A DNA stretch of 14,489 nucleotides from Chloroflexia bacterium (GTDB lineage Bacteria > Chloroflexota > Chloroflexia > DTKN01): assembly GCA_034433695.1 (NCBI GenBank), contig DAOUAK010000139.1, positions 1 to 14,489 on the forward strand, given 5' to 3'. Position 1 is the stretch's first letter; each line of letters begins with the position of its first letter. Positions 469-14,489 of this stretch are shown here, piece after piece. The notes beneath the pieces are model-generated. The model had not been told where the DNA came from, searched no databases, and saw only the letters and a list, made by a program, of their open reading frames with translations. Position numbers and translations under genes: made by a program.

Positions 469-497
469 TTGACAAAGGGCACCTTTGCGGGTAAACT
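469..497 (+). promoter_or_regulatory. Sigma70-like promoter TTGACA-17-TAAACT for the SPFH gene
   Basis: -35 ttgaca at 469-474, 17-nt spacer, -10 taaact at 492-497. AGGAG at 527-531 and ATG at 542 lie downstream. Confidence 0.5.
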
Positions 498-541
498 GTA
501 GACAGGCCGGATTACTGTGGTTCACCAGGAGAAGAAAAGCC

Positions 542-1789
542 ATGGAGGATCTCGAGATCCCCGAGGAGGAAAGGGATCGTGTGCCCAGGGACAGGAGAGG
601 GATTCGGTTGCTCTTGCGGCTGGGCCTGATCATACTCGTGCTGGGCCTGGGTGGATACCTGGTCTGGCAAGGAGGGTGGCTGGGCGTCCTCTTTTGGCTC
701 CTCATGATTATCTTCCTGATCGAGCACTCCGTCGGCATCCTCTTCGCCCTCCATGACGAACCCGGATCCCGCTGGTACGGATTCCTCTTCTGGGTGTCCA
801 GCGCCTTTCTGGGTTCTCCGGCCGTTCAGATGGTGCGCCAGAAGGACCTGGAGGTCAAGACGGTGCGGCCGGCCGGACCGCTGGCTTCTCTCTTTGCCCG
901 GCTGGGGGCGCCGGCCATCGTCGTCATCGAAAACGGCCTGGCCGCCGTCTTTGAGCGGAGCGGAAAATTCACCCAGGTGCACGGCCCCGGCATCGTCTAT
1001 ACCCGACGTTTCGAGCGCGTGGCCCATGTGATTGACCTGCGTCCGCAACTGCGCCAGGCCGAGATCAAGGATATCCAGACCCGGGATGGCCTGAAGTTCG
1101 ACATCAAGCCGCTCTGGGTCCTCTTCCAGGTAGCCACCGAATATCCCCAGCAGGCCGATTACGGCTACTCCGAGCAGGCCGTGCTCGATCTGGTCTACCG
1201 GGGCGGGCTGCTCTACAATGAAAAGGGGGAGCGGATCGAATGGGGCCGGCGGGTGGTGGGGATGATCGAATACCACCTGCGACAGGTGGCTTCCCGATAC
1301 GACCTCCTGGCTCTGGTTCAGGGGGACGGGGGCAGGAATGCCCGGCAGAATTTTCTCCAGGAGGTGACGGAGGCGGCGCGTTCGGACCTGCAGAGGTGCG
1401 GTGTGCACCTGGTTGGGATTGATATGGGGGATGTGGAGGTGCCGGGCGAAATCCGGGCCCTGCTGGCCCTGCCGATTCGCCAGAGGGTGGACCTAGGATG
1501 GGCACGGACCCAGCGGAGCGCCGTCATCGGCATCTCCGAAGGGCTGCGACAGGCGATGGACCGGATCAAGGAAGCCATTCCCGAAGAGGCCGGGCAGAGG
1601 TCGTACCTCCTTCTCAATTTGATGGCCACGCTGGGGTCGGTTCTGGAGAAATTCCTGGAACTGGCCCGGCCTTATTACCGGGAAGAGCGCGAGGAACTGG
1701 AAAAACCGGCGGAGGAGGGCCGGCCGGCCCTGAGGCCGGGGATAACGAAACCGGAGGCCGGAGCGGCCGGAAAGAAGGAGGGGGGATGA
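542..1789 (+). CDS. SPFH/band-7 (stomatin/prohibitin/flotillin/HflKC) domain membrane protein. Two N-terminal TM helices and a coiled-coil, charged C-terminal tail.
   Basis: ORF track 485..1789. I prefer the ATG at 542 (MEDLEIPEE..) because AGGAG sits 10 nt upstream; the 485 TTG start has no RBS. Hydrophobic segments LLLRLGLIILVLGLGGYLV and LGVLFWLLMIIFLI are followed by an SPFH-like core (PAIVVIENGLAAVFERSGKF..GIVY...IDLRPQ...IKD.QTRDGL.FDIK). Confidence 0.8.
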   Translation: MEDLEIPEEERDRVPRDRRGIRLLLRLGLIILVLGLGGYLVWQGGWLGVLFWLLMIIFLIEHSVGILFALHDEPGSRWYGFLFWVSSAFLGSPAVQMVRQKDLEVKTVRPAGPLASLFARLGAPAIVVIENGLAAVFERSGKFTQVHGPGIVYTRRFERVAHVIDLRPQLRQAEIKDIQTRDGLKFDIKPLWVLFQVATEYPQQADYGYSEQAVLDLVYRGGLLYNEKGERIEWGRRVVGMIEYHLRQVASRYDLLALVQGDGGRNARQNFLQEVTEAARSDLQRCGVHLVGIDMGDVEVPGEIRALLALPIRQRVDLGWARTQRSAVIGISEGLRQAMDRIKEAIPEEAGQRSYLLLNLMATLGSVLEKFLELARPYYREEREELEKPAEEGRPALRPGITKPEAGAAGKKEGG

Positions 1790-1797
1790 AAGGAGGG

Positions 1798-2313
1798 TCA
1801 GGAGGAAGGTTCGGTTTCTTTGCCGATGAGCCTGGGGGGTAGCCCGGTCGGTTCCCGCCAGAAGCGGTCTGCGGAAACCTGCTTGGACCAGCGCCGGGGA
1901 TCTTGCCGGCTACCGAGTGCCTGGAGGAGGGCCGAGACGACCTCGCCGATGCCCTGGTAGTAGCGGTCGGTCTGCGGAGAAGGTTGCTGGCAGGCCTGGG
2001 CGGAAATGGCCGAGCGATAAACGGCGGCGACGATGTTCTCGATGTCCTCCAGCCACCAGTGTTCGGTGCCCGAGGTCGTCCTTGGCCTTTTCCGCGAGGA
2101 AGTTTGGCGGGGAATCTGGTCGAGTTGTTCCAGGGGTAGCCCGAAGGCCAGCATGAGGGCCTGAGTAGCCACCCGGCATCCCCAGCGGTAGAAACGTTCC
2201 TCGGAGGTCGTCGGGCTGTTGTCCCCGGTATCCGGTTCGGGCAATATTTTGGCGGCATAAATCGCCAGAAGGATGTTACGGATGTCCTCGCCACTCCAGA
2301 TTTCCGAACCCAT
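1798..2313 (-). CDS. Hypothetical protein of 171 aa containing an internal tandem duplication of a roughly 55-aa module
   Basis: ATG at 2313 with AGAGGA RBS 6 nt upstream. Repeat 1 is IWSGEDIRNILLAIYAAKI...ERFYRWG...ALMLAFG. Repeat 2 is WWLEDIENIVAAVYRSAI...DRYYQGIG...ALLQALG. The protein-like composition contrasts with the overlapping garbage frame 1614..2294. No recognisable family. Confidence 0.6.
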   Translation of the reverse strand: MGSEIWSGEDIRNILLAIYAAKILPEPDTGDNSPTTSEERFYRWGCRVATQALMLAFGLPLEQLDQIPRQTSSRKRPRTTSGTEHWWLEDIENIVAAVYRSAISAQACQQPSPQTDRYYQGIGEVVSALLQALGSRQDPRRWSKQVSADRFWREPTGLPPRLIGKETEPSS

Positions 2314-2421
2314 CGGTCATCCTCTTGGAACCGGTCCGAAAATAGGCGTGGGACGGTCTGAAGAGGCCGTCCGGGCAGGTTAAAAAGCCTGCCCTACAAG
2401 TTTTCGGTATCTCCGGAAAAT

Positions 2422-2450
2422 AGTGTAGCACATCTTTTCGACAATGTCAA
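2422..2450 (-). promoter_or_regulatory. Sigma70-like promoter on the minus strand (TTGACA-17-TACACT) for the 171-aa gene. Its -35 overlaps the RBS and first ATG of the divergent + gene.
   Basis: Minus strand reads ttgaca (2450-2445), ttgtcgaaaagatgtgc (17 nt), tacact (2427-2422). The roughly 100-nt 5'UTR contains two hairpins: GGGCAGG..CCTGCCC at about 2373-2395 and GGACGG..CCGTCC just downstream on the minus strand. Confidence 0.45.
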
Positions 2451-2461
2451 GGAGGAAAAAG

Positions 2462-3019
2462 ATGTTGGGCTCCGATTGGCTGGAATACTTCCCTGAACAA
2501 CTCCTCACCCTGGATGCCATGCGGACGATTTTCCGACAGGTGCGCGAAACCTTTACCTGGTCCTGGCCGAACAAGCGGGCCGAGCGGGAGTGGCGCCGGC
2601 TGGCCGGGATGGTCCTGGAGGCCCTGGAGGAGGCGTTCATCTGGGGAGCGGTGGTCAAAGGACGGTGGGTGGGCCGGATTCATGACCGCCTGGCCGCCCT
2701 GGAAAGCGGGAAAGGAAAGGCTTCGGTCCGGACGGTACGGGAGGTCCGGGCCGCCTACATCACTTTCCTGGACCGGCTTTACGGGGCCATCTTTCGGCAC
2801 GTGCTCGCGCATATGCCAACGGCCCTCCCCACCGAGGTCGGGTATTTCCACCTCAGTCAGGTGGTTGTCTTCCGTTACGCTCGGCTGCGGGACGCGGAGA
2901 AGCCGGCCCTGGAGGAACTTTTGGAGTTTCTCTATCTGGGCGGCCCGCGTTTCGAGATGGTGTTCTCCTGGCAGCCGCCGGGCGGAAAGGAAGGGGAAAC
3001 CCTCCTTCGGCTCCGATAA
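2462..3019 (+). CDS. Hypothetical protein of 185 aa, transcribed divergently from the 171-aa gene
   Basis: ORF track 2444..3019. I prefer the ATG at 2462 (MLGSDWLEYF..) because GGAGG at 2451-2455 has 6-nt spacing. Protein-like composition with no recognised motif. Stop TAA at 3017-3019. Confidence 0.6.
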   Translation: MLGSDWLEYFPEQLLTLDAMRTIFRQVRETFTWSWPNKRAEREWRRLAGMVLEALEEAFIWGAVVKGRWVGRIHDRLAALESGKGKASVRTVREVRAAYITFLDRLYGAIFRHVLAHMPTALPTEVGYFHLSQVVVFRYARLRDAEKPALEELLEFLYLGGPRFEMVFSWQPPGGKEGETLLRLR

Positions 3020-3097
3020 GGGCCATCCGTGCCCTTTCTTGTCCGTGCCGGCCAAGCGTGCAAGCCATAAGGGGGAAAGTTGATGCCGACATCCTAC

Positions 3098-3126
3098 TTG
3101 ATAAACCCCCGTCTTCATGGTAAAAT
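3098..3126 (+). promoter_or_regulatory. Near-consensus sigma70 promoter TTGATA-17-TAAAAT upstream of the MNT-HEPN cassette
   Basis: ttgata at 3098-3103, 17-nt spacer aacccccgtcttcatgg, taaaat at 3121-3126. AAGGAGG follows at 3128-3134 but has no well-spaced start codon; the nearest is a TTG at 3136, 1 nt away. Confidence 0.5.
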
Positions 3127-3403
3127 AAAGGAGGTTTGCAGGTCACTGCGTTCTATTCCGGACGACGCGGCGCACTGGACCGGGCAACCCATGGTTTTCT
3201 GGTCGCGGCGACAGCCGGCGGTTTCTATGCGAATACGGGAAGCAACGAGTTCATCTACCGCGATCGGTTTCAGCACAGCAGTTGGCTGGCGATACCCATC
3301 CTTCTCTGGACGACTTCACCCGGCACGATGGAGTTCGAGGACGGGACTAGACCTGCGCGACCCGCCGTGGAAGTTACTGAAACCGCTAATCCGGTGGTAA
3401 GCG

Positions 3404-3727
3404 ATGGAAGAGACTCTAAGGGAAGTCAAACGGATCATTCAGGAAGAGGTGGAAGGCGCAGGTTACCGGGTGCGACGTCTCCTCCTTTTCGGCAGCCGGG
3501 CCCGCGGAGAGGCCCGGCCTGACAGCGACTGGGACTTTTATGTGATCATCGACGCCGATGCCGATCGCCAAACCCGCCACGCTATTGCCTCCCGCATCTG
3601 CTGGCGGCTGGCCTTGGAAGGAACCGTCGTTGACGTCTTTGTGCAATCAGAACGCGTGGTGCGGGAACGGGAAGGAGATGTCGGCAGCCTCACGTATTAT
3701 GCGCTGAAAGAGGGTGTCGCGCTATGA
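3404..3727 (+). CDS. Minimal nucleotidyltransferase (MNT, pol-beta superfamily), MntA-like antitoxin partner of HEPN
   Basis: Diagnostic motif LFGSRARGEARPDSDWDFYV (GS-x9-11-DxD). 107 aa. A 4-bp ATGA overlap with the downstream HEPN gene. Confidence 0.85.
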   Translation: MEETLREVKRIIQEEVEGAGYRVRRLLLFGSRARGEARPDSDWDFYVIIDADADRQTRHAIASRICWRLALEGTVVDVFVQSERVVREREGDVGSLTYYALKEGVAL

Positions 3728-4128
3728 GTGAGGCCACCGTTCGGCGTTGGATTCAAAAGGCTGAGAACGATCTCAAGATCGGCGAGGACGAGATGTGTAT
3801 GCCGGATCCGGCGACCGATATGGTGTGCTTCCACATGCAGCAGTGCGCAGAAAAATACCTTAAGGCATTCTTGATCTTCCACCGCCAGGAACCTCCCCGG
3901 ACGCATCGCTTGGCGGCGTTGATTGCGCGATGTGGGCAGATCGATCCTTCGTTCGTCGAGATGATGGAGTGGGGGGTGGATGACTTGACTCCCTATGCAA
4001 CCGAGATGCGTTACGCGGAGGAATTTGCTCTCCCGGATCTCGAAGAAACCCAAAGGGCCATCACTCTGGCGAAACGCGTTCGGACCTTGGTGCTGGAGAG
4101 GCTGACGCAGAGGGGATTGAGCCTTTAG
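3724..4128 (+). CDS. HEPN-domain protein (HepT-like toxin partner of MNT)
   Basis: 134 aa. KYLKAFLIFHRQEPPRTHRLAALI matches the HEPN (PF05168-type) conserved R-x(4-6)-H / P.TH.L..L region. It is translationally coupled to the MNT gene. The cassette is about 55% GC against about 67% in the flanks. Confidence 0.8.
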   Translation: MSEATVRRWIQKAENDLKIGEDEMCMPDPATDMVCFHMQQCAEKYLKAFLIFHRQEPPRTHRLAALIARCGQIDPSFVEMMEWGVDDLTPYATEMRYAEEFALPDLEETQRAITLAKRVRTLVLERLTQRGLSL

Positions 4129-4197
4129 GAGATGTCGCCTATGCACACCCTTCACCCGGTAGCCCCTTCCGGGCATCGCCCGGCCGGGACCGTCGCC

Positions 4198-4440
4198 TTA
4201 TGGCGTCGGCGTGACGACCGGCGTGGGAGGGGCCGGCATCGTGGGTGGGACGGGGGTCAGGGTCGGGATGAGGAACCGCCCCGGCACCTCGGTCCAGGGC
4301 AACGGCGTGGGTAGGGGAGCCTTCCAGGCGCAGGAGCGGGGCCAGATAACCACCAGAATCAGCACGGCCAGAACGACGGCCACCAGGGCCAGGAGTTCCA
4401 GCCGGCCGCTCCAGGAGTTGTTCGCTTTCCGTGTACCCAT
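4198..4440 (-). CDS. Small (80 aa) single-pass membrane protein with a Pro/Thr-rich C-terminal tail
   Basis: ATG at 4440 (minus) preceded by GAAGGAGA 5 nt upstream. MGTRKANNSWSGRLELLALVAVVLAVLILVVIW is one TM helix; the tail is PLPTPLPW..PTLTPVPPTMPAPPTPVVTPTP. It is the C-terminal part of the longer spurious ORF 4198..5040 and convergent with the HEPN gene. Confidence 0.45.
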   Translation of the reverse strand: MGTRKANNSWSGRLELLALVAVVLAVLILVVIWPRSCAWKAPLPTPLPWTEVPGRFLIPTLTPVPPTMPAPPTPVVTPTP

Positions 4441-4501
4441 ACGGTCTCCTTCTCTTGCGTTTTGCGCTGCCAGTGTACCACGGGGCAGGAGGGATGTCAA
4501 G

Positions 4502-4530
4502 TTGCACCGGGCCGAATTTTGTGGTATCAT
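4502..4530 (+). promoter_or_regulatory. Sigma70 promoter with extended -10 (TTGCAC-17-TGgTATCAT) driving the leader of the ECF operon
   Basis: ttgcac at 4502-4507, 17-nt spacer, TG at 4522-4523, tatcat at 4525-4530. Predicted TSS about 4537, which is 250 nt upstream of the ecfA1 ATG. Confidence 0.55.
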
Positions 4531-4660
4531 GACTTTGCCACCGACCCCCGGGTGGGCGGTGAGCCAGGGCGGCCGGCGGCCGCAAGTGCAGGCATAGTTC
4601 AGGATCGTCGCTGGGATCGCAGGGCGACCGAGACGGCGAGGTGGCGATGGAAAGAGCATC

Positions 4661-4786: not shown

Positions 4787-5650
4787 ATGGACGAACCCCT
4801 GATCTGCGTCCGGAACCTGCATTTTGCGTACCCTGCCGGCGGGTCTCTCCGGCCGGCGCTCAACGGCATTGACCTGGACATCTGGCCGGGCGAGTATATC
4901 GCCCTCATCGGCCCCAACGGCTCCGGCAAGACAACTCTGGCCCGCCACCTTAACGCCCTGCTTCTGCCCACCGAGGGGGATGTCTGGGTACAGGGAATGA
5001 ACACAAAGGACCCACACTGCTGGCAGGCGATTCGCCGCACGGTGGCAATGGTCTTTCAGAACCCGGACAGCCAGGTCGTCGCCACGGTGGTGGAGGAGGA
5101 CGTCGCCTTCGGCCCGGAGAACCTGGGGGTGCCGGAGGAGGAGTTGCGTCGCCGGGTGGACTGGGCGCTGGAGGTGGTCGGCCTTTCGGCACAGCGGCAT
5201 CGTGCGCCTCAACACCTCTCCGGTGGCCAGAAGCAACGGCTGGCCCTGGCCGGGGCGCTGGCCATGCTGCCCCGCTGTCTGGTGCTGGACGAGGCCACCT
5301 CGATGCTCGACCCGGCCGGCCGGTGGGCCGTCTTGGAGATCGTCCGGGAACTCTATCATCGGGGAATGACCGTCGTTGCCATTACCCAGGATATGGAAGA
5401 GGTTGTCTGGGCTGAGCGGGTCGTCGTCATGGCCGAGGGACGCATCGTCCTTCAGGGTTCGCCCCGCGAGGTGCTGGCGCAGGAGGAAAGGCTGTATGCC
5501 CTGGGCCTGGACGTTCCGCCGCTGGTCCGGCTTTCCCGCGCCTTACATGCCCGTATTCCCGACTTCCCGGACGGCCTGCTGACCCCGGCCGAGTTTGTCG
5601 CGGCCGTCCGGGAGCGTATCCACAGAGGCAGACGATGGACCGAGCCCTGA
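4787..5650 (+). CDS. ecfA: ECF transporter energy-coupling ATPase, first copy (EcfA1/CbiO-like ABC ATPase)
   Basis: Walker A GPNGSGKTT, ABC signature LSGGQKQRLALAGAL, Walker B LVLDEATSMLD. C-terminal region typical of EcfA. 16-bp overlap with the next gene. Confidence 0.9.
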   Translation: MDEPLICVRNLHFAYPAGGSLRPALNGIDLDIWPGEYIALIGPNGSGKTTLARHLNALLLPTEGDVWVQGMNTKDPHCWQAIRRTVAMVFQNPDSQVVATVVEEDVAFGPENLGVPEEELRRRVDWALEVVGLSAQRHRAPQHLSGGQKQRLALAGALAMLPRCLVLDEATSMLDPAGRWAVLEIVRELYHRGMTVVAITQDMEEVVWAERVVVMAEGRIVLQGSPREVLAQEERLYALGLDVPPLVRLSRALHARIPDFPDGLLTPAEFVAAVRERIHRGRRWTEP

Positions 5651-6489
5651 TCGAGGTACACGACCTCCACTATACCTATATGCGCGGGACCCCCCTGGAG
5701 ACGGCCGCCCTCCGCGGCGTCCACCTTGTCGTCCGGGCCGGCGAGATCGTCGGCCTCATCGGGCCAACCGGATCGGGCAAGTCCACCCTTCTCCAGCACC
5801 TGAACGGCCTTTTACGCCCCCAGCGCGGTTCGGTGCGTGTGCTGGGGGAGGACCTCGCCGACCCCCGCGTGGACCTGCGCGACATCCGGAGACGGGTCGT
5901 CCTTCTCTTCCAGAACCCGGAGGATCAGATTTTCGAGCGCTATGTGGCCGACGACGTGGCTTTCGGGCCGCTGAGTTTGGGCCTGCCGCGGGAGGAAGTG
6001 CAGGTGCGGGTGCGCCGGGCGATGGAGGCGGCCGGCCTGCCCTCTTCCTTCGATAACCGGCTCACCTTTGCCCTCAGCGCCGGCGAACGCCGTCGGGTGG
6101 CGCTGGCCGGCGTGCTGGCGTTGGAGCCGGAGGTGCTGGTGCTGGACGAACCGCTGGCCGGGCTGGACCCCCGTGGCCGCCGGGAACTCCTGGCCCTGCT
6201 TCGGGAGTGGCATCGGCGGGAGGGCCGGGCCATCGTCTGGGCCTCCCACTCGATGGAGGAGATCGCCGGCCTGGCCGACCAGGTTTACGTCCTGGTCGAG
6301 GGACGGGTGGTGCTGGAGGGGACCACCCGGGAGGTATTCGCCCAGGGCGAGGCCCTGGCCCGGTGGGGGTTGGAGGTGCCGGTCGTGACCGGGATGTTGA
6401 GGGAACTGGCCCAGGCCGGCCTGCCGGTGCGCGGCGACGCGCTCACTCTGGAAGAGGCCCTCTCCATCCTGGAGGAGGTGCTTCGATGA
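5635..6489 (+). CDS. ecfA2: ECF transporter energy-coupling ATPase, second copy (EcfA2)
   Basis: Walker A GPTGSGKST, signature-like LSAGERRRVALAGVL, Walker B LVLDEPLAGLD. Stop TGA at 6487-6489 overlaps the ATG at 6486 of the next gene. Confidence 0.9.
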   Translation: MDRALIEVHDLHYTYMRGTPLETAALRGVHLVVRAGEIVGLIGPTGSGKSTLLQHLNGLLRPQRGSVRVLGEDLADPRVDLRDIRRRVVLLFQNPEDQIFERYVADDVAFGPLSLGLPREEVQVRVRRAMEAAGLPSSFDNRLTFALSAGERRRVALAGVLALEPEVLVLDEPLAGLDPRGRRELLALLREWHRREGRAIVWASHSMEEIAGLADQVYVLVEGRVVLEGTTREVFAQGEALARWGLEVPVVTGMLRELAQAGLPVRGDALTLEEALSILEEVLR

Positions 6490-7340
6490 GCGATTTTGAG
6501 GTATTGCGCTCCCTCTCTTTCGGCCAGTACCTGCCTGCCGGCTCGCCTCTGCACCGGCTGGACCCCCGGGTCCGATTGACCGGCATCCTCCTGCTCATGC
6601 TGGCGCTGATGGCCTGTGCCCGGCTGACCATCGCCTTTCTGGGGCTGACGCTGGTACTGGGCCTGTTCGGCCTGGCCCGCCTCCCGCTGGGCTATGGACT
6701 CCGCGGACTCCGGCCTCTTCTGCCCCTCTTTGGCTTCGTCCTGGTCCTGCAGCTGCTCTTTTACCCCCATGAAGCCGCCGTTGCTGAAGGCAGCGCCGTC
6801 GTGTGGCAATGGGGACCGATCCTCATCAGCGCCGCCAGCCTGCTCGATACCGCCTCCATTCTGCTGCGCATGGTCGCCATCGCCCTTCTTCTGACGCTCC
6901 TCACCGCCATCGCCGATACCACGGACCTGGTCCACGCCGTGGAGGGGATGTTGCGGCCCCTGCAGCGGCTACATCTGCCGGCCCACGAACTGGCCCTGAT
7001 GGTAGCGATCACGCTGCAATTTATCCCCCTTCTGGGGCGGGAACTGGAACGTCTGCTCAAGGCCCAGGCAGCGCGGGGGGCCGATTTCGGCCGCGGGCGG
7101 GGCAACTTTTTCACCCGTATACGCCGGATGCTGCCGCTCCTGATTCCCCTTTTCCTCGCCGCCCTGCGTCGGGCCGAGGAACTGGCCCTGGCGATGGAGG
7201 CACGGGGGTATGCGGGTGGACGAGGACGGACATCCCTGGTGCGTCTACAGATGCGGCCGGCCGACTTCCTGGCCCTGGCCCTATCCCTGGCCATCACGGC
7301 CCTGGTATTCTTTCTGGATCGAGGGGTTATGCCGCTCTAA
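6486..7340 (+). CDS. ecfT: ECF transporter transmembrane T component (EcfT/CbiQ family)
   Basis: ORF track 6207..7340. The true start is ATG 6486 (MSDFEVLRS..), which overlaps the ecfA2 stop. Multi-TM protein with the characteristic Arg-rich coupling helices (ARGADFGRGRG, LRRAEELALAMEARGY). Confidence 0.85.
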   Translation: MSDFEVLRSLSFGQYLPAGSPLHRLDPRVRLTGILLLMLALMACARLTIAFLGLTLVLGLFGLARLPLGYGLRGLRPLLPLFGFVLVLQLLFYPHEAAVAEGSAVVWQWGPILISAASLLDTASILLRMVAIALLLTLLTAIADTTDLVHAVEGMLRPLQRLHLPAHELALMVAITLQFIPLLGRELERLLKAQAARGADFGRGRGNFFTRIRRMLPLLIPLFLAALRRAEELALAMEARGYAGGRGRTSLVRLQMRPADFLALALSLAITALVFFLDRGVMPL

Positions 7341-7407
7341 AACGCGAGAAGGTGTAAACCCGACCCAACTGTCTGACCCGTATCTTGAAGAAGAAAAGGA
7401 GGTTGCC

Positions 7408-8250
7408 ATGAAAATCACCACCCGTCAGATCGTCGTTACTGCCGCCCTGAGCGCCATCGCTATCGTGCTGGGTGCTACCCGCGTCGGCTTCATCCCCTTT
7501 GTGCTGGGCATCGCCATCACCGTTATGCACATCCCGGTGATCATCGGAGCCGTCCTGGAGGGCCCACTGGTGGGTACGATGATCGGCTTCCTCTTTGGCC
7601 TGTTCAGCCTCATCTGGGCCTTTGTCGCACCCACCGGGCCTGGAGACATCTTCTTCCAGAACCCGCTCATCTCCGTCCTGCCGCGCCTGTTCATCGGCAT
7701 CCTGGCCTACCTGGCCTACCGGGCGCTTCGGGAGCCTCGGCCCTGGAAGGTCTATATCGCCGCCGGGGGAATCCTCGCTGTGGTGGCCATCGCCCTGGTC
7801 CTGACCTACGCCACCCCCCTTCTACCCGACTATGCCAGGGCCGTGGAGCAGGAGCCCGGGCAAATCGTCCCCACCTGGCAGATCATCGTGCTCGTCGCGC
7901 TGGCCATCCTGGTGGTCGTCCTGGCCGTCGGCGTATACCTGGCCTTTCGCCACCGGGTGCTGGAACGCTGGGGGGAAATTCTGGCCATCGGCGCGGCAGC
8001 CGTCGTCGGCACGCTGACCAATACGGTGCTGGTCCTGGGGAGCATTGGGGTAGTGGGCCGGCTGGAGCCGCTGGCCGGGCTGGGCAAGGTGCCTCCTCTT
8101 CCCTGGAGTTTCCTGCTGGCCGTCGGTCTGACCAACGGCATCCCCGAGATCGTCGCCGCCGTCGTGATCACCGTCGCCGTGGTCGCGGCCTGGAAGCAGA
8201 TCGAGTTCGGTTATCGCGGTGCCCGCAACATGCGCACACGCAACACGTAA
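7408..8250 (+). CDS. ECF transporter substrate-specific (S) component. By context (coaX immediately downstream) a candidate pantothenate S component (PanT-like). Unusually long at 280 aa with about 8 predicted TM segments.
   Basis: ORF track 7210..8250. Start ATG 7408 (MKITTRQIVVTAALSAIAIVLG..) with GGAGG at 7398-7402. The N-terminus resembles ECF S components (BioY/PanT style). The C-terminal half adds extra hydrophobic helices and an RNMRTRNT tail. Confidence 0.6.
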   Translation: MKITTRQIVVTAALSAIAIVLGATRVGFIPFVLGIAITVMHIPVIIGAVLEGPLVGTMIGFLFGLFSLIWAFVAPTGPGDIFFQNPLISVLPRLFIGILAYLAYRALREPRPWKVYIAAGGILAVVAIALVLTYATPLLPDYARAVEQEPGQIVPTWQIIVLVALAILVVVLAVGVYLAFRHRVLERWGEILAIGAAAVVGTLTNTVLVLGSIGVVGRLEPLAGLGKVPPLPWSFLLAVGLTNGIPEIVAAVVITVAVVAAWKQIEFGYRGARNMRTRNT

Positions 8251-8279
8251 CGCGCACCACGCAACCCGCACCACGCAAC
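8224..8279. repeat. Short degenerate tandem repeat GCAC(C)ACGCAAC, two exact 12-mers and one degenerate copy, spanning the S-component stop and the coaX upstream region
   Basis: gcaccacgcaac at 8254-8265 and 8268-8279; gcacacgcaacac at 8233-8245. Confidence 0.5.
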
Positions 8280-8292
8280 ACGGAGGACTCCC

Positions 8293-9078
8293 ATGCTCCT
8301 CTGCCTCGACATCGGCAACACCAACATCGTCCTGGGTCTGTACCAGGGGGAAAGGTTGCTCCACCACTGGCGGATTGCCACCGAGCGCGAGCGTACCACC
8401 GACGAGTACGCCGCCCTCTTCCTGACGCTTCTGGCCCATGCCGGCCTGGCGCATTCATCCATCCACGGTGCCGCCATCGCCAGCGTCGTCCCTCCCCTCA
8501 CGGGGGCCTTTGTGGGCCTCTGTCGGCGCTACCTGGAGGTGGACCCGCTGGTGGTGGATGCCGGCGTGCGTACCGGCGTGCGCCTGCGCATCGAGAACGC
8601 CCGCGAGGTCGGGGCCGACCGGGTGGTCAACGCCGCTGCCGCCTTCCGGCGCTACGGTGGGCCGGCCTGCGTGGTGGACTTTGGCACGGCTACCACTTTC
8701 GACGCCATCTCCGCCGAGGGCGATTACCTGGGCGGCGCCATCGCCCCGGGCATCGCCATCGCGGCCAAGGCGTTGACCGAGCGCACGGCCAAACTGCCCC
8801 AGGTGGAACTTGTCCCTCCCCCCCAGGCCATCGGCCGGAACACCGTTCAGAGTATGCAATCGGGCATCCTCTTCGGCTATGTGGGCCTGGTGGAGGGGAT
8901 GGTGGCCCGCTTCCGGCAGGAACTCGGTCCGGAGATGCGGGTCATCGCTACCGGCGGGCTGGCCGAACTCATCGCCCGGGAGACCGACGTCTTCCAGGCG
9001 GTGGACCCCTGGCTGACCCTGGAGGGCCTGCGCCTTATCTACGAACTGAACCGGGGGGAAAAGGCCTCCGGCCGGTAG
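8293..9078 (+). CDS. coaX: Type III pantothenate kinase (CoaX/Bvg accessory factor family)
   Basis: N-terminus MLLCLDIGNTNIVLGLY, plus GADR..VN and VDFGTATTFD acetate/sugar-kinase fold motifs. GGAGG at 8282-8286 is 6 nt before the ATG. 261 aa. Confidence 0.9.
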   Translation: MLLCLDIGNTNIVLGLYQGERLLHHWRIATERERTTDEYAALFLTLLAHAGLAHSSIHGAAIASVVPPLTGAFVGLCRRYLEVDPLVVDAGVRTGVRLRIENAREVGADRVVNAAAAFRRYGGPACVVDFGTATTFDAISAEGDYLGGAIAPGIAIAAKALTERTAKLPQVELVPPPQAIGRNTVQSMQSGILFGYVGLVEGMVARFRQELGPEMRVIATGGLAELIARETDVFQAVDPWLTLEGLRLIYELNRGEKASGR

Positions 9079-9123
9079 CCACCGTATCCGGCTTTGCCGG
9101 AAAAGGCTGCTCGTCGCCCGAGC

Positions 9124-9217
9124 GATGCCCGAAGGGGCGTACCGCATGTGCGCCTGTAAGGAGACAAGATGTATGGGGGCGGGATAGGGTATCGTCCCGC
9201 CCCCCTTCGGGGGCATC
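9124..9217. other. Nested inverted repeats in the convergent intergenic region, possibly a bidirectional terminator
   Basis: Outer arms are GATGCCCGAAGGGG (9124-9137) and CCCCTTCGGGGGCATC (9202-9217). Inner perfect hairpin is GGGGGCGGGA (9175-9184), loop tagggtatcg, TCCCGCCCCC (9195-9204). No U-tract on either strand. Confidence 0.4.
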
Positions 9218-9280: not shown

Positions 9281-9694
9281 TTAGCCCGGAACGGCCTTGA
9301 GCGGGTTGGCTCCCAACTTCTGCACCCGCTCGGTCATCTCCTGCACCGCCGCAGCGAAGGAATAGCCCTGCGAACCGGTCACAAAAAAGATTTCCACCCG
9401 TTCCCCGCCCAATCCCACCTCGTCCAGGATTTTCTTGCTCCGGCCGACCCGCTTTTCGGCGCGCAAATTGCCTTCCAGGTGATGGCAGGTGCCCTTGGTG
9501 CAGGCCACCACCATGACCGCGTCGGCCCCCTGTTCCAGGGCTTTGAGGATGTAGAGGACATCCACCTTACCGGTGCAGGGAAGTTTGACCACCTTGACGT
9601 CCGCCGGATACTGGATGCCGGTGGTGCCGGCCATATCCACCGAAGTATAGCCACAGTAGATGCAGGTAAAGACCGTGATCTCGGGCATTTCCAT
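9281..9694 (-). CDS. mvhD: MvhD/FlpD-like iron-sulfur protein (methyl-viologen-reducing hydrogenase delta-subunit family)
   Basis: MEMPEITVFTCIYCGYTSVDMAG...VVKLPCTGKVDVLYILKALEQGADAVMVVACTKGTCHHLEGN carries the conserved Cys pattern of MvhD. Start ATG overlaps the hdrA stop (TGATG) and is preceded by an AAGGGGGAAA RBS. The ORF track's longer 9281..9943 frame is upstream read-through. Confidence 0.8.
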   Translation of the reverse strand: MEMPEITVFTCIYCGYTSVDMAGTTGIQYPADVKVVKLPCTGKVDVLYILKALEQGADAVMVVACTKGTCHHLEGNLRAEKRVGRSKKILDEVGLGGERVEIFFVTGSQGYSFAAAVQEMTERVQKLGANPLKAVPG

Positions 9695-12600
9695 CACTTT
9701 CCCCCTTCTTCTGGAAGCCAATCCCCCAAAACGGCCATTTCGGGGACGATGATCTGCTCGTCCCGGTAAAGCGTCAACTGGATGGCCTTGGCCGGACACT
9801 CCCCGGTGCAGGTGCCGCAGCCCTGGCAACGGCCCGGTTCGATATAGGCCGCCCCCCGAAGGCCGCCCACGCCGGTGCGCGTAGGGTCGATGACCGGGAC
9901 GTCGAAGGGGCATACCCGCACACAGGTCAGGCAGCCCACACACTTGTCAGGGTCCACCACGGCCGCCACCCCGCCGACTTCCAGGACGTCCCGGGAAAGG
10001 ATGGTCAGGGCCCGGCCGGCCGCCCCCTGCGCCTGGGCGATGGCCTCTTCGATGAACTTGGGGTAGTGGGCCATCCCGCACAGGAAGATGCCCTCGCGCA
10101 GAAAGTCTATGGGGCGCAACTTGATGTGGGCCTCCATGAAGAAGCCCTCCGGTGAAAGGGGAACCCCTAAAACCCTGCTCAGGTGTTCCGTGCTGGGGTC
10201 CGGCTGGACGCTCATGCTCAGCACCAGCGCGTCCGGGTGGATCACCAGTTTCTCCCCCAGCGAGAGGTCGGTAGCCCGCACCTCCAAGCGGCCGTCTGTC
10301 GCCTGCACCTGCGGGGGATTTTCCTCATCGTAGCGCACAAAGAGCACCCCCTGCCGCCGGGCTTCGGTATAGTACTGCTCGCGGAAGCCGTAGGTGATTA
10401 GGTCCTTGTAGAGGACATAGATGCGCGCCTTGGGGTTGAGCCGCCGGATCCGGAGGGCATTCTTCACCGTGTTGGTGCAACAGATGCGGCTACAATAGTC
10501 GTAAGGGGCGTCGGGCGGCCGTACACATTGGATCATCACCACCGTGTTCATCTGGGCCACCCGGCCGGGGTTGACCAGGATCAGGCGCTCCAATTCCTGC
10601 TGGGTCATCACCCGCTCGTGTTGGCCCAGGAGGTAGACCGAACCGTGAAATTCCTGCCCGCCGATAGCCACGATGGTTACTCCGTGCTCAACCCCGACCC
10701 GATGCCGGCGGGCCGGATCGTGGCGATGGACCTCGATGGTGGAACGAAAGTTGCCCACAAAGCCTTCGTGGCGCACCACTTCGCTGTCGGTATACACGGT
10801 GATGCGCGGTTCCTGCAGGACCTGATGTACCAGGGAAAAGAGGTAGGCTTGTGGGTCGGCCCCTTCGGCCGTAGAGTAAAGGGCGCGGACGTGGCCGCCC
10901 AGGACATCGCTCCGCTCGACCAGGGTGACGGGGTAGCCGGCGGCGGCGATGGTCAGGGCAGCGTTGATTCCGGCGATACCGCCCCCGATCACCAGAGCCC
11001 GCTTGGCCACACCCACCGGGGTGCGGCGCACCGCCTCCAGCCGGCGTGCCCGGGCCGCGGCCATCCGCACCAGTTCCCGGGCCTGGCGGGTGGCCGCCGC
11101 CGGCGCTTCGCGATGCGCCCAGGCGCACTGGGAACGGAGGTTGGTCATCTCCAGGAGGTACGGGTTCAGGCCGGCCTGCCGCAGGATGTTCTGGAAAAAG
11201 GCCTCATGCGTGCGCGGACTGCAGGCCGCGACGACCACCCGGTTCAACCCCTGCTCCAGGATGGCCTGGCGGATTTTGGCCGGAGATTCGCCGATGCAGG
11301 CGTAATCCATTTCCTCGACATAGACCACATCCGGCAGGGTACGGGCGTAGGCGGCTACGGCCGAGGTATCCACCGTGCCGGCAATTTCGCGGCCGCAGCG
11401 ACAGAGAAAGAGGCCCACCCGGGGGGCTTCCCCGGAGATGTCCCGTTCCGGAGGATATGTCGGGGGTCTGGTCGCCGTGCCGGCCACATCGGCCAGGAGT
11501 TCCATACAACGGGCCGCCGCTGCGCTGGCCTCGGCCACCGTTTCGGCGATCTCCTTAGGGCTGGAAAAGGCCCCGGCCACAAAGATGCCCGGCCGGTTGG
11601 TGTCCACCGGGGTGAATTTGCCTGTAAGACAAAAACCATACTCGTTCAGGGCAATCCCCAGTTCCTGGGCCAGGGCTACGGCCTGCAGCGGCGGTTCCGA
11701 GCCGACCGAGAGCACCACCAGGTCGAAGCGTTCCTCATGCAGTTGCCCCTTTTCGTCCTGATAGCGGAGGAACAGGTCATGGGTAGAAGGGTCTTCGCGG
11801 ATGTTGGAGATACGGCAACGGGTATAGCGGACGCCGTAGAGGTCGCGGGAACGGATAAAGTAGGCGTTGTACTCCTTGTTGAAGGTACGTTCATCCATCA
11901 TAAAGATATGGCATTCGGCTTCTGGGTCGCGCTGGCGGGCCAGGACGGCCTCTTTGGTGGCGTACATACAACAGATAGAGGAACAGTAATCATGCTGGCG
12001 GTCGCGGGAACCGACACATTGGAGCCAGGCGATCTTCTTGGGAGGCCGACCGTCGGAAGGCCGGCGGGCCAGCCCCTCCGTCGGGCCCGAGCGGCTGACC
12101 AGCCGCTCGAATTGCAGGGAGGTGACCACATTGGGATAGCGCCCGAAGCCCAGTTCTTCGCTGAGAAGTGGGTTGTAGAGCGTAAAGCCGGGGGCCAGGA
12201 TAATGGCCCCGACCTCGACCGTTTCCTCCCAGGGTTCTTCCTGGAGGTTGATGGCCCGGGTGGGGCAAACCTCCTGGCACTTTCCGCAACCTTCGCAATA
12301 AGGCCCCTTGTCCACCAGATACACATCGGGCAGGGTACGCGGGGAGACCTTGTAAACCGCCCGGCGGGCGCTCATGCCCAACTGGAACTCGCTGGGGAGT
12401 TCCACCGGGCAGACCCGGGCGCACTCCCCGCAACTGGTACAGCGCGCCACATCCACATAGCGTGGGTAGTGGCGCAGACGCACATGGAAGTGGCCCGGCT
12501 CTCCTTCGACCTGGCTGACCTGGGTCAACGTCATGACCCGGATGTTGGGGTGAGTGCTGTGGTCCAGGAAGACGTAAGAGATGGCCGGCCGGGTGCAACC

Positions 12601-12810
12601 GTAGCCGTGTTCGGCCGTGCCCCGGCAGAGGACACAGTCATGGGAGGGAAACATAAACCCCAACTGGGCGATCTTGCCCCCCAGGGCCGGGGTGGATTCG
12701 ATCAAATAGACCTTCAGGCCGGCCTCGGCCAGGTCGTAGGCGGCGCGCATCCCGGCCACGCCGCCCCCTACGACCAGAACCGCCCCCACTTTTTTCCGAA
12801 GTTCTGTCAC
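9694..12810 (-). CDS. hdrA: Giant (1038 aa) HdrA-like flavo-iron-sulfur protein. Domain order: HdrA module 1 (FAD domain with inserted 2x[4Fe-4S] ferredoxin), internal MvhD-like domain, HdrA module 2, C-terminal 2x[4Fe-4S] ferredoxin.
   Basis: Two dinucleotide-binding motifs (VLVVGGGVAGM and ALVIGGGIAGI). Two HdrA signature regions (IAWLQCVGSRD..YCSSICCMY and VVMIQCV..YDYCSRICC). Four CxxCxxCxxxCP ferredoxin motifs. Internal LFLCRCGREIAG..VVVAACSP resembles MvhD. GTG start at 12810 with GGAGG 9 nt upstream. Confidence 0.85.
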   Translation of the reverse strand: MTELRKKVGAVLVVGGGVAGMRAAYDLAEAGLKVYLIESTPALGGKIAQLGFMFPSHDCVLCRGTAEHGYGCTRPAISYVFLDHSTHPNIRVMTLTQVSQVEGEPGHFHVRLRHYPRYVDVARCTSCGECARVCPVELPSEFQLGMSARRAVYKVSPRTLPDVYLVDKGPYCEGCGKCQEVCPTRAINLQEEPWEETVEVGAIILAPGFTLYNPLLSEELGFGRYPNVVTSLQFERLVSRSGPTEGLARRPSDGRPPKKIAWLQCVGSRDRQHDYCSSICCMYATKEAVLARQRDPEAECHIFMMDERTFNKEYNAYFIRSRDLYGVRYTRCRISNIREDPSTHDLFLRYQDEKGQLHEERFDLVVLSVGSEPPLQAVALAQELGIALNEYGFCLTGKFTPVDTNRPGIFVAGAFSSPKEIAETVAEASAAAARCMELLADVAGTATRPPTYPPERDISGEAPRVGLFLCRCGREIAGTVDTSAVAAYARTLPDVVYVEEMDYACIGESPAKIRQAILEQGLNRVVVAACSPRTHEAFFQNILRQAGLNPYLLEMTNLRSQCAWAHREAPAAATRQARELVRMAAARARRLEAVRRTPVGVAKRALVIGGGIAGINAALTIAAAGYPVTLVERSDVLGGHVRALYSTAEGADPQAYLFSLVHQVLQEPRITVYTDSEVVRHEGFVGNFRSTIEVHRHDPARRHRVGVEHGVTIVAIGGQEFHGSVYLLGQHERVMTQQELERLILVNPGRVAQMNTVVMIQCVRPPDAPYDYCSRICCTNTVKNALRIRRLNPKARIYVLYKDLITYGFREQYYTEARRQGVLFVRYDEENPPQVQATDGRLEVRATDLSLGEKLVIHPDALVLSMSVQPDPSTEHLSRVLGVPLSPEGFFMEAHIKLRPIDFLREGIFLCGMAHYPKFIEEAIAQAQGAAGRALTILSRDVLEVGGVAAVVDPDKCVGCLTCVRVCPFDVPVIDPTRTGVGGLRGAAYIEPGRCQGCGTCTGECPAKAIQLTLYRDEQIIVPEMAVLGDWLPEEGGK

Positions 12811-12849
12811 AGAAGTGCACCTCCGTCGTGAAGTCTTTCACCAGGAAAT

Positions 12850-12878
12850 ATTATACGCCCGGGGGAAAGAAATGTCAA
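12850..12878 (-). promoter_or_regulatory. Perfect consensus sigma70 promoter TTGACA-17-TATAAT on the minus strand driving hdrA-mvhD
   Basis: Minus strand reads ttgaca (12878-12873), tttctttcccccgggcg (17 nt), tataat (12855-12850). Predicted TSS about 33 nt upstream of the hdrA GTG. Confidence 0.55.
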
Positions 12879-12895
12879 AAGAGGAATGCACCTAT

Positions 12896-12924
12896 TTGCA
12901 TCTCCTCCGGCCCTGTAGTAAAAT
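12896..12924 (+). promoter_or_regulatory. Sigma70 promoter TTGCAT-17-TAAAAT for polA, back-to-back with the hdrA promoter
   Basis: ttgcat at 12896-12901, 17-nt spacer, taaaat at 12919-12924. RBS GAAAGGGG at 12941-12948, then ATG at 12957. Confidence 0.5.
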
Positions 12925-12956
12925 GAATTTGTAGCGTGGAGAAAGGGGCAATAGCC

Positions 12957-14489
12957 ATGTCTGAGAGGCCCAAACTGGTTTTGATCGACGGCCACGCCCT
13001 CCTCTATCGGGCTTATCACGCCCTGCCGGCCACGATGGTGACCTCCAAGGGGGAGCCGACCAACGCCCTCTACGGCTTCCTTTCCACCGTCCTCAAGGTG
13101 CTGGCCGAGGAGCAACCCGACCATGTGATCGTCTGCATGGACCGGGGGAGGACCTTCCGCCACGACCTCTATAAGGAGTACAAGGCTCACCGCGCCAAGA
13201 TGCCCGATGACCTGCGGCCGCAGGTGGAACGGGCCGAGGAGGTCCTGAGCGCCCTGGGCATCCCCTCCTGCGGTCTGGACGGATACGAGGCCGATGACCT
13301 CATCGGCACGCTGGCCCGCCAGGCGGAGGAGGCCGGCCTGGATACCCTCATCATCACCGGCGATAGCGATGCCCTGCAACTGGTCCGCGAACACGTCCAC
13401 GTGCTCGTCCCCGGCCGTAAATACAGCGACACCCTCCGTTACGACCCGGCCCGGGTGCAAGAGCGCTACGGCTTCGAGGCCGAGCGCCTGGTCGAGTTCA
13501 AGGCCCTCAAGGGGGATCCCTCCGATAACATCCCCGGCGTGCCGGGGATCGGAGAGAAGACGGCCGAGGAACTGGTGCGTAACTTGGGTTCCCTGGAGGC
13601 CATCTACGAGAGGCTGGAGCAGATTCCCCCCCGCTATCGCAAGGCCCTGGAGGAGAACCGGGAACAGGCCTTTCTCAGCCGCGACCTGGCCCGAATCCGC
13701 ACCGATGCCCCGATCCGGCTGGACCTGGAGGGCAGCCGCTTCGGCGCCTACGACCGCGAGGCCGTGGTGCGCCTCTTCCGCGAACTCGAGTTCCGGAGCC
13801 TTCTGGAGCGGCTCCCGGGCCGGCGGGAGGCCGAGCCGGCCCCGATCTCCCGCCAGTTGCCCCTCTTTGCCGAAGGCACCGCCGCCCTGCCGGAACCGAC
13901 GGAGCATCCGGCCTACCGCATCGTCCGGGATGAGGCCGCCCTGAAGGAGATGCTGGCCGCCCTGGGCTCCGGCCCCCTGGCCCTGGATACCGAAACCACC
14001 TCCACCCAGCCGATGGATACCGAACTGGTAGGGATTTCCCTGGCCCGAGGCGACGGCCGGGCCTGGTACATCCCGGTCGGCCACCGCACGCCCGACGGCC
14101 GGCGACTTCCGGAGCAACTGCCCTGGGAGACGGTCTGCCGGCACCTTTCCCCTCTCCTGGGGGATGCAGGCATCCCCAAGATCGACCACCATGCCAAGTT
14201 CGACACCCTGGTGCTGGCCGAGCAGGGGCTGGAGGTGCGCGGCATCACCTTTGACACCTTAATTGCCGCCTACCTGGTGGGCGGGCGTTCGGGCCTGGCC
14301 GAGGGCGAAGGAGAAGCCGAAAGCGGCTCCGCCGCCCTGCGGAAGGACCGTTCCATCGGGCTGAAGAACCTGGCCTTCCGCTACCTGGGCGTGGAAATGC
14401 GGGACATTTCCGAAATCCTGGGGAAGGGAAAGGCCCAGCGCACGATGGACCGGGTGCCGATCGAGGTGGTCGGCCCGTATGCCTGTGCC
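12957..14489 (+). CDS. polA: DNA polymerase I, 5' part (5'-3' exonuclease/FEN domain and start of the 3'-5' exonuclease domain). It runs off the window end.
   Basis: Not in the ORF track because there is no stop inside the window. MSERPKLVLIDGHALLYRAYHAL..GEPTNALYGF..YKAHR..GYEADDLIGTLA..ITGDSDALQL is a classic PolI 5' nuclease. LALDTETTS is the Exo I motif DxE. Confidence 0.9.
   Translation, partial: MSERPKLVLIDGHALLYRAYHALPATMVTSKGEPTNALYGFLSTVLKVLAEEQPDHVIVCMDRGRTFRHDLYKEYKAHRAKMPDDLRPQVERAEEVLSALGIPSCGLDGYEADDLIGTLARQAEEAGLDTLIITGDSDALQLVREHVHVLVPGRKYSDTLRYDPARVQERYGFEAERLVEFKALKGDPSDNIPGVPGIGEKTAEELVRNLGSLEAIYERLEQIPPRYRKALEENREQAFLSRDLARIRTDAPIRLDLEGSRFGAYDREAVVRLFRELEFRSLLERLPGRREAEPAPISRQLPLFAEGTAALPEPTEHPAYRIVRDEAALKEMLAALGSGPLALDTETTSTQPMDTELVGISLARGDGRAWYIPVGHRTPDGRRLPEQLPWETVCRHLSPLLGDAGIPKIDHHAKFDTLVLAEQGLEVRGITFDTLIAAYLVGGRSGLAEGEGEAESGSAALRKDRSIGLKNLAFRYLGVEMRDISEILGKGKAQRTMDRVPIEVVGPYACA

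Follow-up and report, generated by a model that had tools for sequence, protein, structure and literature searches.

The window analysed here is the 14,489 nucleotides at positions 1–14,489 of contig DAOUAK010000139.1 of a Chloroflexia bacterium (GenBank assembly GCA_034433695.1; GTDB lineage Bacteria; Chloroflexota; Chloroflexia; DTKN01). It carries a gene for a minimal nucleotidyltransferase (MNT) followed by a gene for a HEPN protein, and the MNT gene is preceded by a leader of 277 nt, the stretch 3127–3403 between the −10 hexamer of a promoter-like site and the MNT ATG. Very probably, the two genes form an intact MNT/HEPN-T module, a cassette stranded in its present place, and at least the 3′ two-thirds of the leader are the decayed 3′ part of the mod gene of a type III restriction-modification (R-M) system. 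At least its 3′ 170 nt can be identified by sequence comparison as a frameshifted pseudogene relic of such a gene. This reading would remove an apparent oddity, the long “untranslated” stretch being a dead methyltransferase gene and not a new RNA or micro-protein. The features of the region are as follows.

3098–3126, plus strand: sigma-70-type promoter-like site, TTGATA-17-TAAAAT, TG-extended −10, 10 of 12 matches
3128–3134, plus strand: AAGGAGG, orphan Shine-Dalgarno-like sequence, 2 nt past the −10 hexamer
3136–3231, plus strand: 5′ third of the leader, no Mod match, flat codon-position GC, with “GGFYA” (3217–3231) in the place of DPPY
3232–3294, plus strand: fossil A, relic of the Mod block that comes after motif IV (DPPY-NTG...); reads NTGSNEFIYRDRFQHSSWLAI, same phase as 3136
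3294–3400, plus strand: fossil B, the last ~35 Mod codons in three phases
3294–3320, plus strand: first piece of fossil B, THPSLDDFT
3322–3348, plus strand: second piece of fossil B, GTMEFEDGT
3347–3400, plus strand: third piece of fossil B, LDLRDPPWKLLKPLIRW-TAA
3393–3397, plus strand: GGTGG, likely ribosome-binding site of MNT, 6 nt 5′ of its ATG; former Trp-Trp codons of Mod
3404–3727, plus strand: MNT, 107 aa, minimal nucleotidyltransferase, presumed antitoxin
3724–4128, plus strand: HEPN, 134 aa, HEPN-T (PF05168) family, presumed RNase toxin

Traces of a type III mod gene in the leader

As was found by the nhmmer search, positions 3311–3402 match a DNA profile of the Mod 3′ end with an E value of 2.7e-11 and a 5-nt deletion, the next best match having E 0.024. 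Eight Mod genes contributed their final 135 nt to this profile, MNT sequence being excluded, and 29 kb was searched. A blastn comparison of the leader with the DNA located 5′ of MNT in other loci gave 74% identity over 70 nt for locus L002 (E 2e-6) and 87% over 30 nt for L005. The open reading frame (ORF) in front of MNT in L002 encodes 271 aa, has its stop 3 nt before MNT and ends ...DLRNPPWEMVKLLIWW. Its counterpart in the window is LDLRDPPWKLLKPLIRW-TAA in the MNT phase, with GTMEFEDGT in another phase past the 5-nt gap; the gap in the DNA alignments thus marks a frame change. At the protein level, positions 119–127 and 129–145 of the Mod C-terminal profile align to two frames, and the Mod tail profile alone gave E 0.03–0.06.

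Fossil A was recognised with a profile of the motif IV region, by a six-frame hmmsearch (E 5.9e-5) and among the 306 stop-to-stop ORFs of the window, where it was the sole significant match (E 5e-4). It is 52% identical to residues 413–432 of the L092 Mod by tblastn. An alignment by eye with “NTGSDEFIYTDKFQHASWLTM” of the homolog P0175, whose aligned stretch reads ...DPPYNTGSDEFIYTDKFQHASWLTM, shows 16 of 21 residues identical. The frame of fossil A is the one that the sequence-only reading of this DNA had called “protein-like”, and a PADLOC search with the frame from 3136 returned only two matches, both to MTase_III (E 0.015 and 0.046).

The two fossils represent Mod-specific regions in collinear order, their phases running 1, 0, 1, 2. 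The reading frame is destroyed by at least three frameshifts and by the loss of DPPY, replaced by “GGFYA”; about 370 codons between fossils A and B are deleted, and about 90% of the Mod gene is gone. Searched for as an intact Mod, the leader showed no ORF, no match to PF01555 or another Pfam family (E up to 10) and no DPPY, and a tblastn search with the L092 Res found no Res in the window (E up to 1e-3). The suggestion that 3136–3400 holds a gene remnant, for which a similarity search had been proposed, is supported by the Mod homology at 3232–3402. For annotation, most of 3136–3400, and at least 3232–3400, is a mod pseudogene fragment that should receive no ORF call.

It is extremely improbable that this similarity is due to chance or composition and that the leader is plain spacer DNA. 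The Mod segments are short at the protein level (9–21 residues), and the tail protein profile has E values of only 0.03–0.06. Nevertheless, the DNA profile (E 2.7e-11) gave a single clear match in 29 kb, two independent Mod regions are matched collinearly within one stretch of 170 nt and at no other place in the window, and the match stops exactly at a stop codon 3 nt before MNT, as in the intact loci.

The parent gene and the Mod-MNT junction in related loci

Related loci were collected by scanning species-representative genomes with an MNT alignment (80 loci); a second scan, of metagenome contigs, added 80 more. The N-terminal 190 residues of the L002 upstream ORF match hundreds of proteins named “site-specific DNA-methyltransferase”, and the C-terminal end of that family is matched by the final ~78 residues of the ORF. 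The complete gene is present in L092, L093 and L086, where it encodes about 820 aa with PF01555, ends ...KPLIWW-stop and is followed after 3–4 nt by a ResIII/SWI2-SNF2 gene of about 990 aa. PADLOC identified the L092 gene as MTase_III (PDLC03638, E 1e-217) and the next gene as REase_III. These assignments, together with PF01555 and the adjoining ResIII gene, indicate that the parent is the Mod subunit of a type III R-M system.

A Mod tail is located directly 5′ of MNT in eight distinct loci among MNT relatives at least 40% identical (L002, L005, L015, L095, L096, L097/98, L114 and L121), and likewise in L085, which was found via the Mod search. Mod is of full length in L096 (866 aa), L114 (857 aa) and L121 (1016 aa), internally deleted in frame in L002, L015, L085 and L082, and reduced to a stump in L095, L097 and L099. 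In the metagenome contig L096, the order is Mod (895–3495), MNT (3501–3824), HEPN (3821–4228) and a Res homolog, which starts at 4225, runs to the locus end and is 52.6% identical to the L092 Res. L096:895–7321 is a complete type III R-M operon with MNT-HEPN between mod and res, its four genes abutting or overlapping. L085:976–3224 comprises a deleted Mod, MNT, a HepT-like PF01934 gene and, at the contig end, the first 63 residues of Res. One intact and several decayed examples thus document that the home of this MNT/HEPN-T clade is the interval between the mod and res genes of a type III R-M family, and that the cassettes retain the terminal Mod codons at the expected place of their ribosome-binding site.

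The junction itself, ...TGG-TGG-stop-N3-4-ATG, is the same before Res (L092, L093 and L086) and before MNT (L002, L005, L096 and L085). Its vestige is kept 5′ of MNT without Mod in L087, L089 and L099; the MNT of L087 is 74% identical to that of the window and has its own TATAAT about 45 nt upstream.

These junctions bear on the earlier suggestion that the remnant is a resident gene cut by insertion of the cassette. The cassette does lie at a synteny break, and its GC content at third codon positions (GC3) is below that of its neighbours. Nevertheless, this version is very unlikely: at least nine other unrelated loci have this Mod 3′ end fused to the start codon of MNT through an identical junction, which links the relic to the cassette and not to the insertion site. 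Besides, neither the window nor its close relative L001 (see below) holds any other Mod or Res sequence. The remnant is a Mod 3′ part tied to MNT elsewhere, and the part of the suggestion that invoked disruption at insertion does not stand.

A bolder reading, which we consider possible but rather doubtful, is that the Mod/Res junction of this R-M family is a recurrent docking site for small toxin cassettes. After the same ...LIWW-stop, three arrangements were found: MNT with HEPN-T, MNT with HepT, and a 23S-rRNA-IVP gene with MNT-HEPN. If the junction is a docking site, the terminal codons of Mod would be a portable signal for ribosome binding or translational coupling, and cassettes would move or survive with a piece of mod, the window containing a stranded survivor. 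The toxin could then be an abortive-infection backup or an addiction module for the R-M operon.

Several peculiarities of the related loci were also recorded. In L082:6001–7675, the position after the Mod ...LIWW stop is occupied by the 23S_rRNA_IVP gene, MNT and a truncated HEPN. In L114:3300–3490, the LIWW-stop of Mod lies at 3343, and 130 nt further on, immediately 5′ of MNT, stands a second TTTTGGTGGTGA. The arrangement suggests that a cassette with its own Mod-end stump was placed behind an intact Mod. L086:2700–7610, from a Defluviitoga tunisiensis metagenome-assembled genome, shows a tandem duplication of about 2.5 kb comprising the whole mod upstream of an intact res, and both mod copies are broken into several ORFs. 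The Mod homolog of L121 (447–3497) has a DUF559/REase_MTES_1575 endonuclease-like domain inserted at residues 317–421. Among the matches listed in the two best-120 lists, the Mod N-terminal ones do not exceed 475 aa and the C-terminal-tail ones 156 aa, while the contigs carry genes of 820–1016 aa. Frameshifts split many of the assembled Mod genes, such as those of L092 (712 and 108 aa), L093 (470 and 302 aa) and L086; phase variation, errors of assembly or truncated contigs could be the cause.

The leader as a possible gene or RNA

Two plus-strand frames are open across the leader, one from 3136 to 3522 (128 aa) and the other at 3080–3400 (106 aa). The sequence-only reading considered a small protein started from the TTG at 3136. 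It is hardly credible that either frame is translated into a genuine small protein which would make a third component of the module. In its favour, both frames are open at 59% GC, for which the chance is about 5% per frame by our own composition estimate, and one stretch has a protein-like look. This stretch is accounted for as the Mod relic, however, and the homology changes among all three plus-strand phases. The TTG at 3136 sits 1 nt past the Shine-Dalgarno-like sequence, and the 3080 start precedes the promoter. None of the six leader frames shows a codon-position GC signature, all positions having 0.55–0.64 against about 0.7/0.45/0.8 in real genes, and both open frames were without Pfam matches at E up to 10. 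The ORF from 3136 would also overlap MNT by 118 nt out of frame. Open frames are the residue expected of a recently dead gene.

A functional structured 5′ untranslated region or cis-acting RNA regulating the toxin-antitoxin operon, such as a riboswitch, a thermometer or an antisense target, had likewise been proposed. The distance of 270 nt from promoter to start codon is long for bacteria, and the fossil sequence could have been co-opted. We regard this as highly unlikely, as the predicted minimum free energy of the leader is no better than that of dinucleotide shuffles, with z-scores of +0.64 and +0.49 on the two strands. The Rfam search gave nothing at gathering scores, and at permissive settings only chance-level miRNA and frameshift-element hits (E 8–9). 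Moreover, the same position in relatives is occupied by coding Mod, by unrelated DNA or, in L087, by a short leader of 45 nt that carries a TATAAT of its own, which indicates that no non-coding element is conserved beyond the last ~15 nt. The leader may be a plain, unstructured 5′ leader.

The promoter-like site and the start of the leader

The sequence-only reading pointed to TTGATA-17-TAAAAT at 3098–3126, and the consensus scan confirmed it as a match. Three promoter-like sites were found in 2400–4600, where 0.5 were expected, and all are intergenic; the other two (4500..4472 and 2450..2422) are on the minus strand, each 5′ of a gene. The 3098–3126 site probably drives transcription of the MNT-HEPN operon.

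No ATG, GTG or TTG is present 5–10 nt downstream of AAGGAGG (3128–3134). A single start codon, TTG 3136, is found in its vicinity, but with a spacing of 1 nt it is too close to serve, as had been noted before. AAGGAGG probably lies at or upstream of the transcription start and is therefore unlikely to be a ribosome-binding site for the transcript of that promoter. A normal arrangement is seen at the small membrane-protein gene at 4443, where a promoter and a leader of 26 nt go with AAGGAG-6-ATG.

The idea that the promoter, AAGGAGG and first codons derive from the old Mod 5′ end was tried and rejected: “VTAFYS” and “MTKEQKFYNAL” share only F-Y(-S). It has no profile support for the start of the leader and is speculation.

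The MNT and HEPN proteins

MNT and HEPN are adjacent on the same strand with MNT first, an order repeated in relatives. The ORF list shows the ATGA overlap at 3724–3727 which had been described from the sequence, with the HEPN ATG over the MNT TGA, and this suggests translational coupling. To judge by layout and motifs, 3404–4128 is an intact, ordinary two-gene MNT/HEPN toxin-antitoxin module. An exact-protein look-up found neither of the two proteins on record.

The MNT protein matches PF01909 (E 5.5e-9) and PF18765 (E 1.9e-8). The GS..DxD motif seen earlier is present as G30-S31...D42-W-D44, with D77 as a third acidic residue, and is kept across homologs: 34 sequences share G30, D42, D44 and D77 without exception, and at least 90% of them share S31. 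The protein search returned 210 homologs with identity of up to 74%. Structural relatives in PDB are 1wot, 7ae2 (“MNT antitoxin”) and 9xbd, chain B of 7ae2 being homologous with E 5.5e-4, and the PADLOC match is PDC-S09.

The HEPN protein matches PF05168 with E 3.4e-22, covering 115 of 117 profile positions. This was the sole Pfam match at E ≤ 0.01; PF01934/DUF86 was not matched, and RX4HXY was not found in the sequence. PDB entry 1wol matches with E 8e-4. A comparison with 32 homologs showed that the protein retains all residues that are at least 90% conserved and that C35, K44, H61, L88, R96 and Y97 are invariant. R96-Y97 is accompanied by mostly acidic residues at +3/+4, and the canonical Rx4-6H is absent. 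The R-x6-H proposed earlier (R54...H61) is not a family motif, R54 occurring in only 2 of the 32 homologs. In the HEPN-T family, D often replaces the H of the motif and a conserved H sits elsewhere, and the family clusters with R-M operons (PMC3710099). The invariant R96-Y97, the acidic residues and H61 are consistent with HEPN-T as described there. By its profile matches, the toxin is of the HEPN-T class (PF05168) and not HepT (PF01934), and the label “HepT/MntA-type” given at first has to be withdrawn.

In MNT/HEPN pairs, the toxin is HEPN and the antitoxin is MNT (PMC3710099; PMC4621449). By analogy, the HEPN protein of the window would be an RNase toxin and MNT its antitoxin.

Genomic setting and origin of the cassette

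The GC content of 3020–4130 is 57.9%, against 64.0% for the whole window and 63–68% for the flanks. The lower GC that the sequence-only reading noticed is real, and its figures (55% against about 67%) were not. GC3 is 0.64 for MNT and 0.70 for HEPN, while the other genes of the window have 0.69–0.87, mostly 0.78–0.87.

An MNT homolog (P0064) led to locus L001 (GCA_037443735.1), which is ~99% identical and has the same neighbours. Across the cassette, L001 and the window are ~98–99% identical. Apart from L001, the scan of genome contigs turned up no close relative of the locus in the window. Among intact MNT-HEPN pairs, the closest, with 72–74% MNT identity, are in unrelated contexts, two of them beside methyltransferase genes.

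Upstream of the cassette (485–3019), a trio of genes encodes an SPFH/Band_7 protein (plus strand), a ~170-aa protein (minus strand) and a ~185-aa protein (plus strand), and this trio is kept in distant relatives (L174–L177). The ~170-aa and ~185-aa proteins belong to no Pfam family, and a set of 1.8 billion proteins yields no more than 13 representative clusters for the 185-aa family. A distant relative with the SPFH-hyp-hyp185 trio has different downstream genes and no MNT/HEPN there. This relative and the location of the closest pairs elsewhere indicate that the cassette is accessory DNA at a synteny break. Horizontal acquisition, as claimed originally, is supported by the lower GC3, the unrelated contexts of homologs and the trio relative without the cassette. 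The search of metagenome contigs for an empty site with the 191-aa neighbour protein found nothing, and neither tRNA genes nor convincing direct or inverted repeats at the flanks were found in the window.

The L001 sequence itself shows some further differences. Its only N-run, of exactly 100 N (L001:5500–5599), replaces window positions 3055–3139 (85 nt, 47% GC), an AT-richer segment which holds the promoter-like site and AAGGAGG. A gap in the assembly or masking may account for the run, and strain heterogeneity or low coverage could be behind it. In L001:5864–6587, corresponding to 3404–4128, MNT is split into ORFs of 46 and 61 aa by a 1-nt deletion in a T run. The L001 HEPN differs by six nonsynonymous changes and one synonymous change, including Q40R at a residue at least 90% conserved, while synonymous to nonsynonymous changes in neighbouring genes are 12:9, 9:4 and 3:1. 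These differences may mean that the cassette is decaying in the L001 lineage; alternatively, the frameshift could come from an error in sequencing.

Proposed history and its weak points

The ancestral order would be Mod-MNT-HEPN-Res, as still intact on L096, each gene starting a few bases from the previous stop and the TGG-TGG-stop of Mod standing 3–6 nt 5′ of the next start codon. An internal deletion would then have joined the block after motif IV (3232–3294) to the last ~35 Mod codons (3294–3400). Most likely, the relic either travelled here on the cassette as a fragment or is what decay on the spot has left of a whole R-M operon. The R-M genes would have been lost here, leaving the cassette stranded at the synteny break. 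The terminal TGG-TGG of Mod (GGTGG, 3393–3397) probably doubles as the ribosome-binding site of the next gene, and the Mod end would have been retained on the cassette because its Trp-Trp codons serve in this way.

In the present state, transcription would start from the 3098–3126 promoter and pass through the fossil, carried as a long unstructured 5′ leader. MNT would be translated from GGTGG-6-ATG, with HEPN coupled through ATGA. In HepT, the Tyr of the RX4HXY motif is AMPylated. By analogy with HepT/MntA as generally understood, MNT would restrain HEPN, possibly via nucleotidylation of Y97.

Several observations weigh against this reconstruction. The 5′ ~95 nt (3136–3231) are assigned neither to Mod nor to anything else, and gave no match to the Mod N-terminal, motif IV and tail profiles. 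Fossil A is a 21-residue match, significant at the protein level, and a DNA profile for which six Mod genes supplied the motif IV region found no match in the leader; these six genes mostly carry a different sequence variant. The promoter is a consensus match only, and L001, the one close relative, has a run of 100 N there. The 98.9% identity of the leader with L001 is uninformative on constraint because the whole cassette is ~98–99% identical.

The case adds a small data point to the view that toxin-antitoxin modules hitch-hike with restriction systems in defence islands and outlive them. It seems to be ordinary biology, and its interest lies chiefly in the recurrent, precisely conserved Mod/MNT junction.

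Comparison with known systems

MNT/HEPN modules with HEPN-T (PF05168) toxins are described in the HEPN census (PMC3710099) and in PMC2701414. The module of the window resembles them in its gene order, with MNT ahead of HEPN and the stop of one overlapping the start of the other, in the GS...DxD motif with a third Asp of MNT, and in PF05168. Its invariant R-Y with mostly acidic residues where other HEPN families have H, and its invariant H elsewhere, would fit the HEPN-T of the census (PMC3710099). The window copy differs in being stranded without an R-M partner and in having a mod relic as its leader, and otherwise in nothing essential.

Examples of HepT/MntA (DUF86/PF01934) are Shewanella SO_3166/SO_3165 (PMC4621449) and the Aphanizomenon HEPN/MNT pair (PDB 7ae2). 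The two-gene logic is the same, the MNT proteins are homologous (7ae2 chain B, E 5.5e-4), and in L085, one of the related loci, the same Mod/Res junction is occupied by a HepT-like gene. In contrast, the toxin of the window is not PF01934 and is without RX4HXY.

Compared with type III R-M systems consisting of Mod and Res, the leader keeps two pieces of Mod in collinear order, one following motif IV and the other comprising the C-terminus and the stop codon. Unlike them, it has no ORF, DPPY or Res, and with ~90% of the gene deleted it is a pseudogene fragment and not a system.

PrrC/EcoprrI, a HEPN anticodon nuclease inside a type Ic R-M operon (PMC3710099), offers a precedent for a HEPN RNase nested between R-M subunit genes, as in L096 (Mod-MNT-HEPN-Res). 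PrrC, however, is a single ABC-ATPase-HEPN protein restrained by the R-M enzyme, whereas the HEPN of the window has its own MNT partner and no R-M genes are left there.

Neighbouring genes and other elements

Further features of the window are as follows.

2444–3019, plus strand: upstream neighbour ORF, 191 aa, probable start at ATG 2462
4158–4179, plus strand: GC-rich hairpin element GGTAGCCCCTTCCGGGCATCGC between HEPN and the convergent membrane-protein gene, outside the cassette proper
9122–9143, minus strand: inverted copy of the GC-rich hairpin element, after coaX, between convergent genes

The 191-aa gene (2444–3019) was considered as another Mod relic on the basis of weak tblastn and HMM hints and was rejected (hhalign probability 0.15%). 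By a full-library search, it belongs to a family of its own, with proteins of 169–277 aa. The hairpin element of ~22–30 nt has two matches in the window, where 0.01 are expected, and is possibly a bidirectional terminator or an element similar to repetitive extragenic palindromes.

Downstream of the cassette, positions 4787–9078 hold an energy-coupling factor (ECF) transporter operon (ecfA1, ecfA2, ecfT and the S component) and a type III pantothenate kinase gene. The minus strand encodes an HdrA-like flavo-iron-sulfur protein of 1038 aa and an MvhD/FlpD-like gene at 9281–12810, and upstream of the HdrA-like gene lies a 461-aa ORF (12807–14192, minus strand) with no Pfam match.

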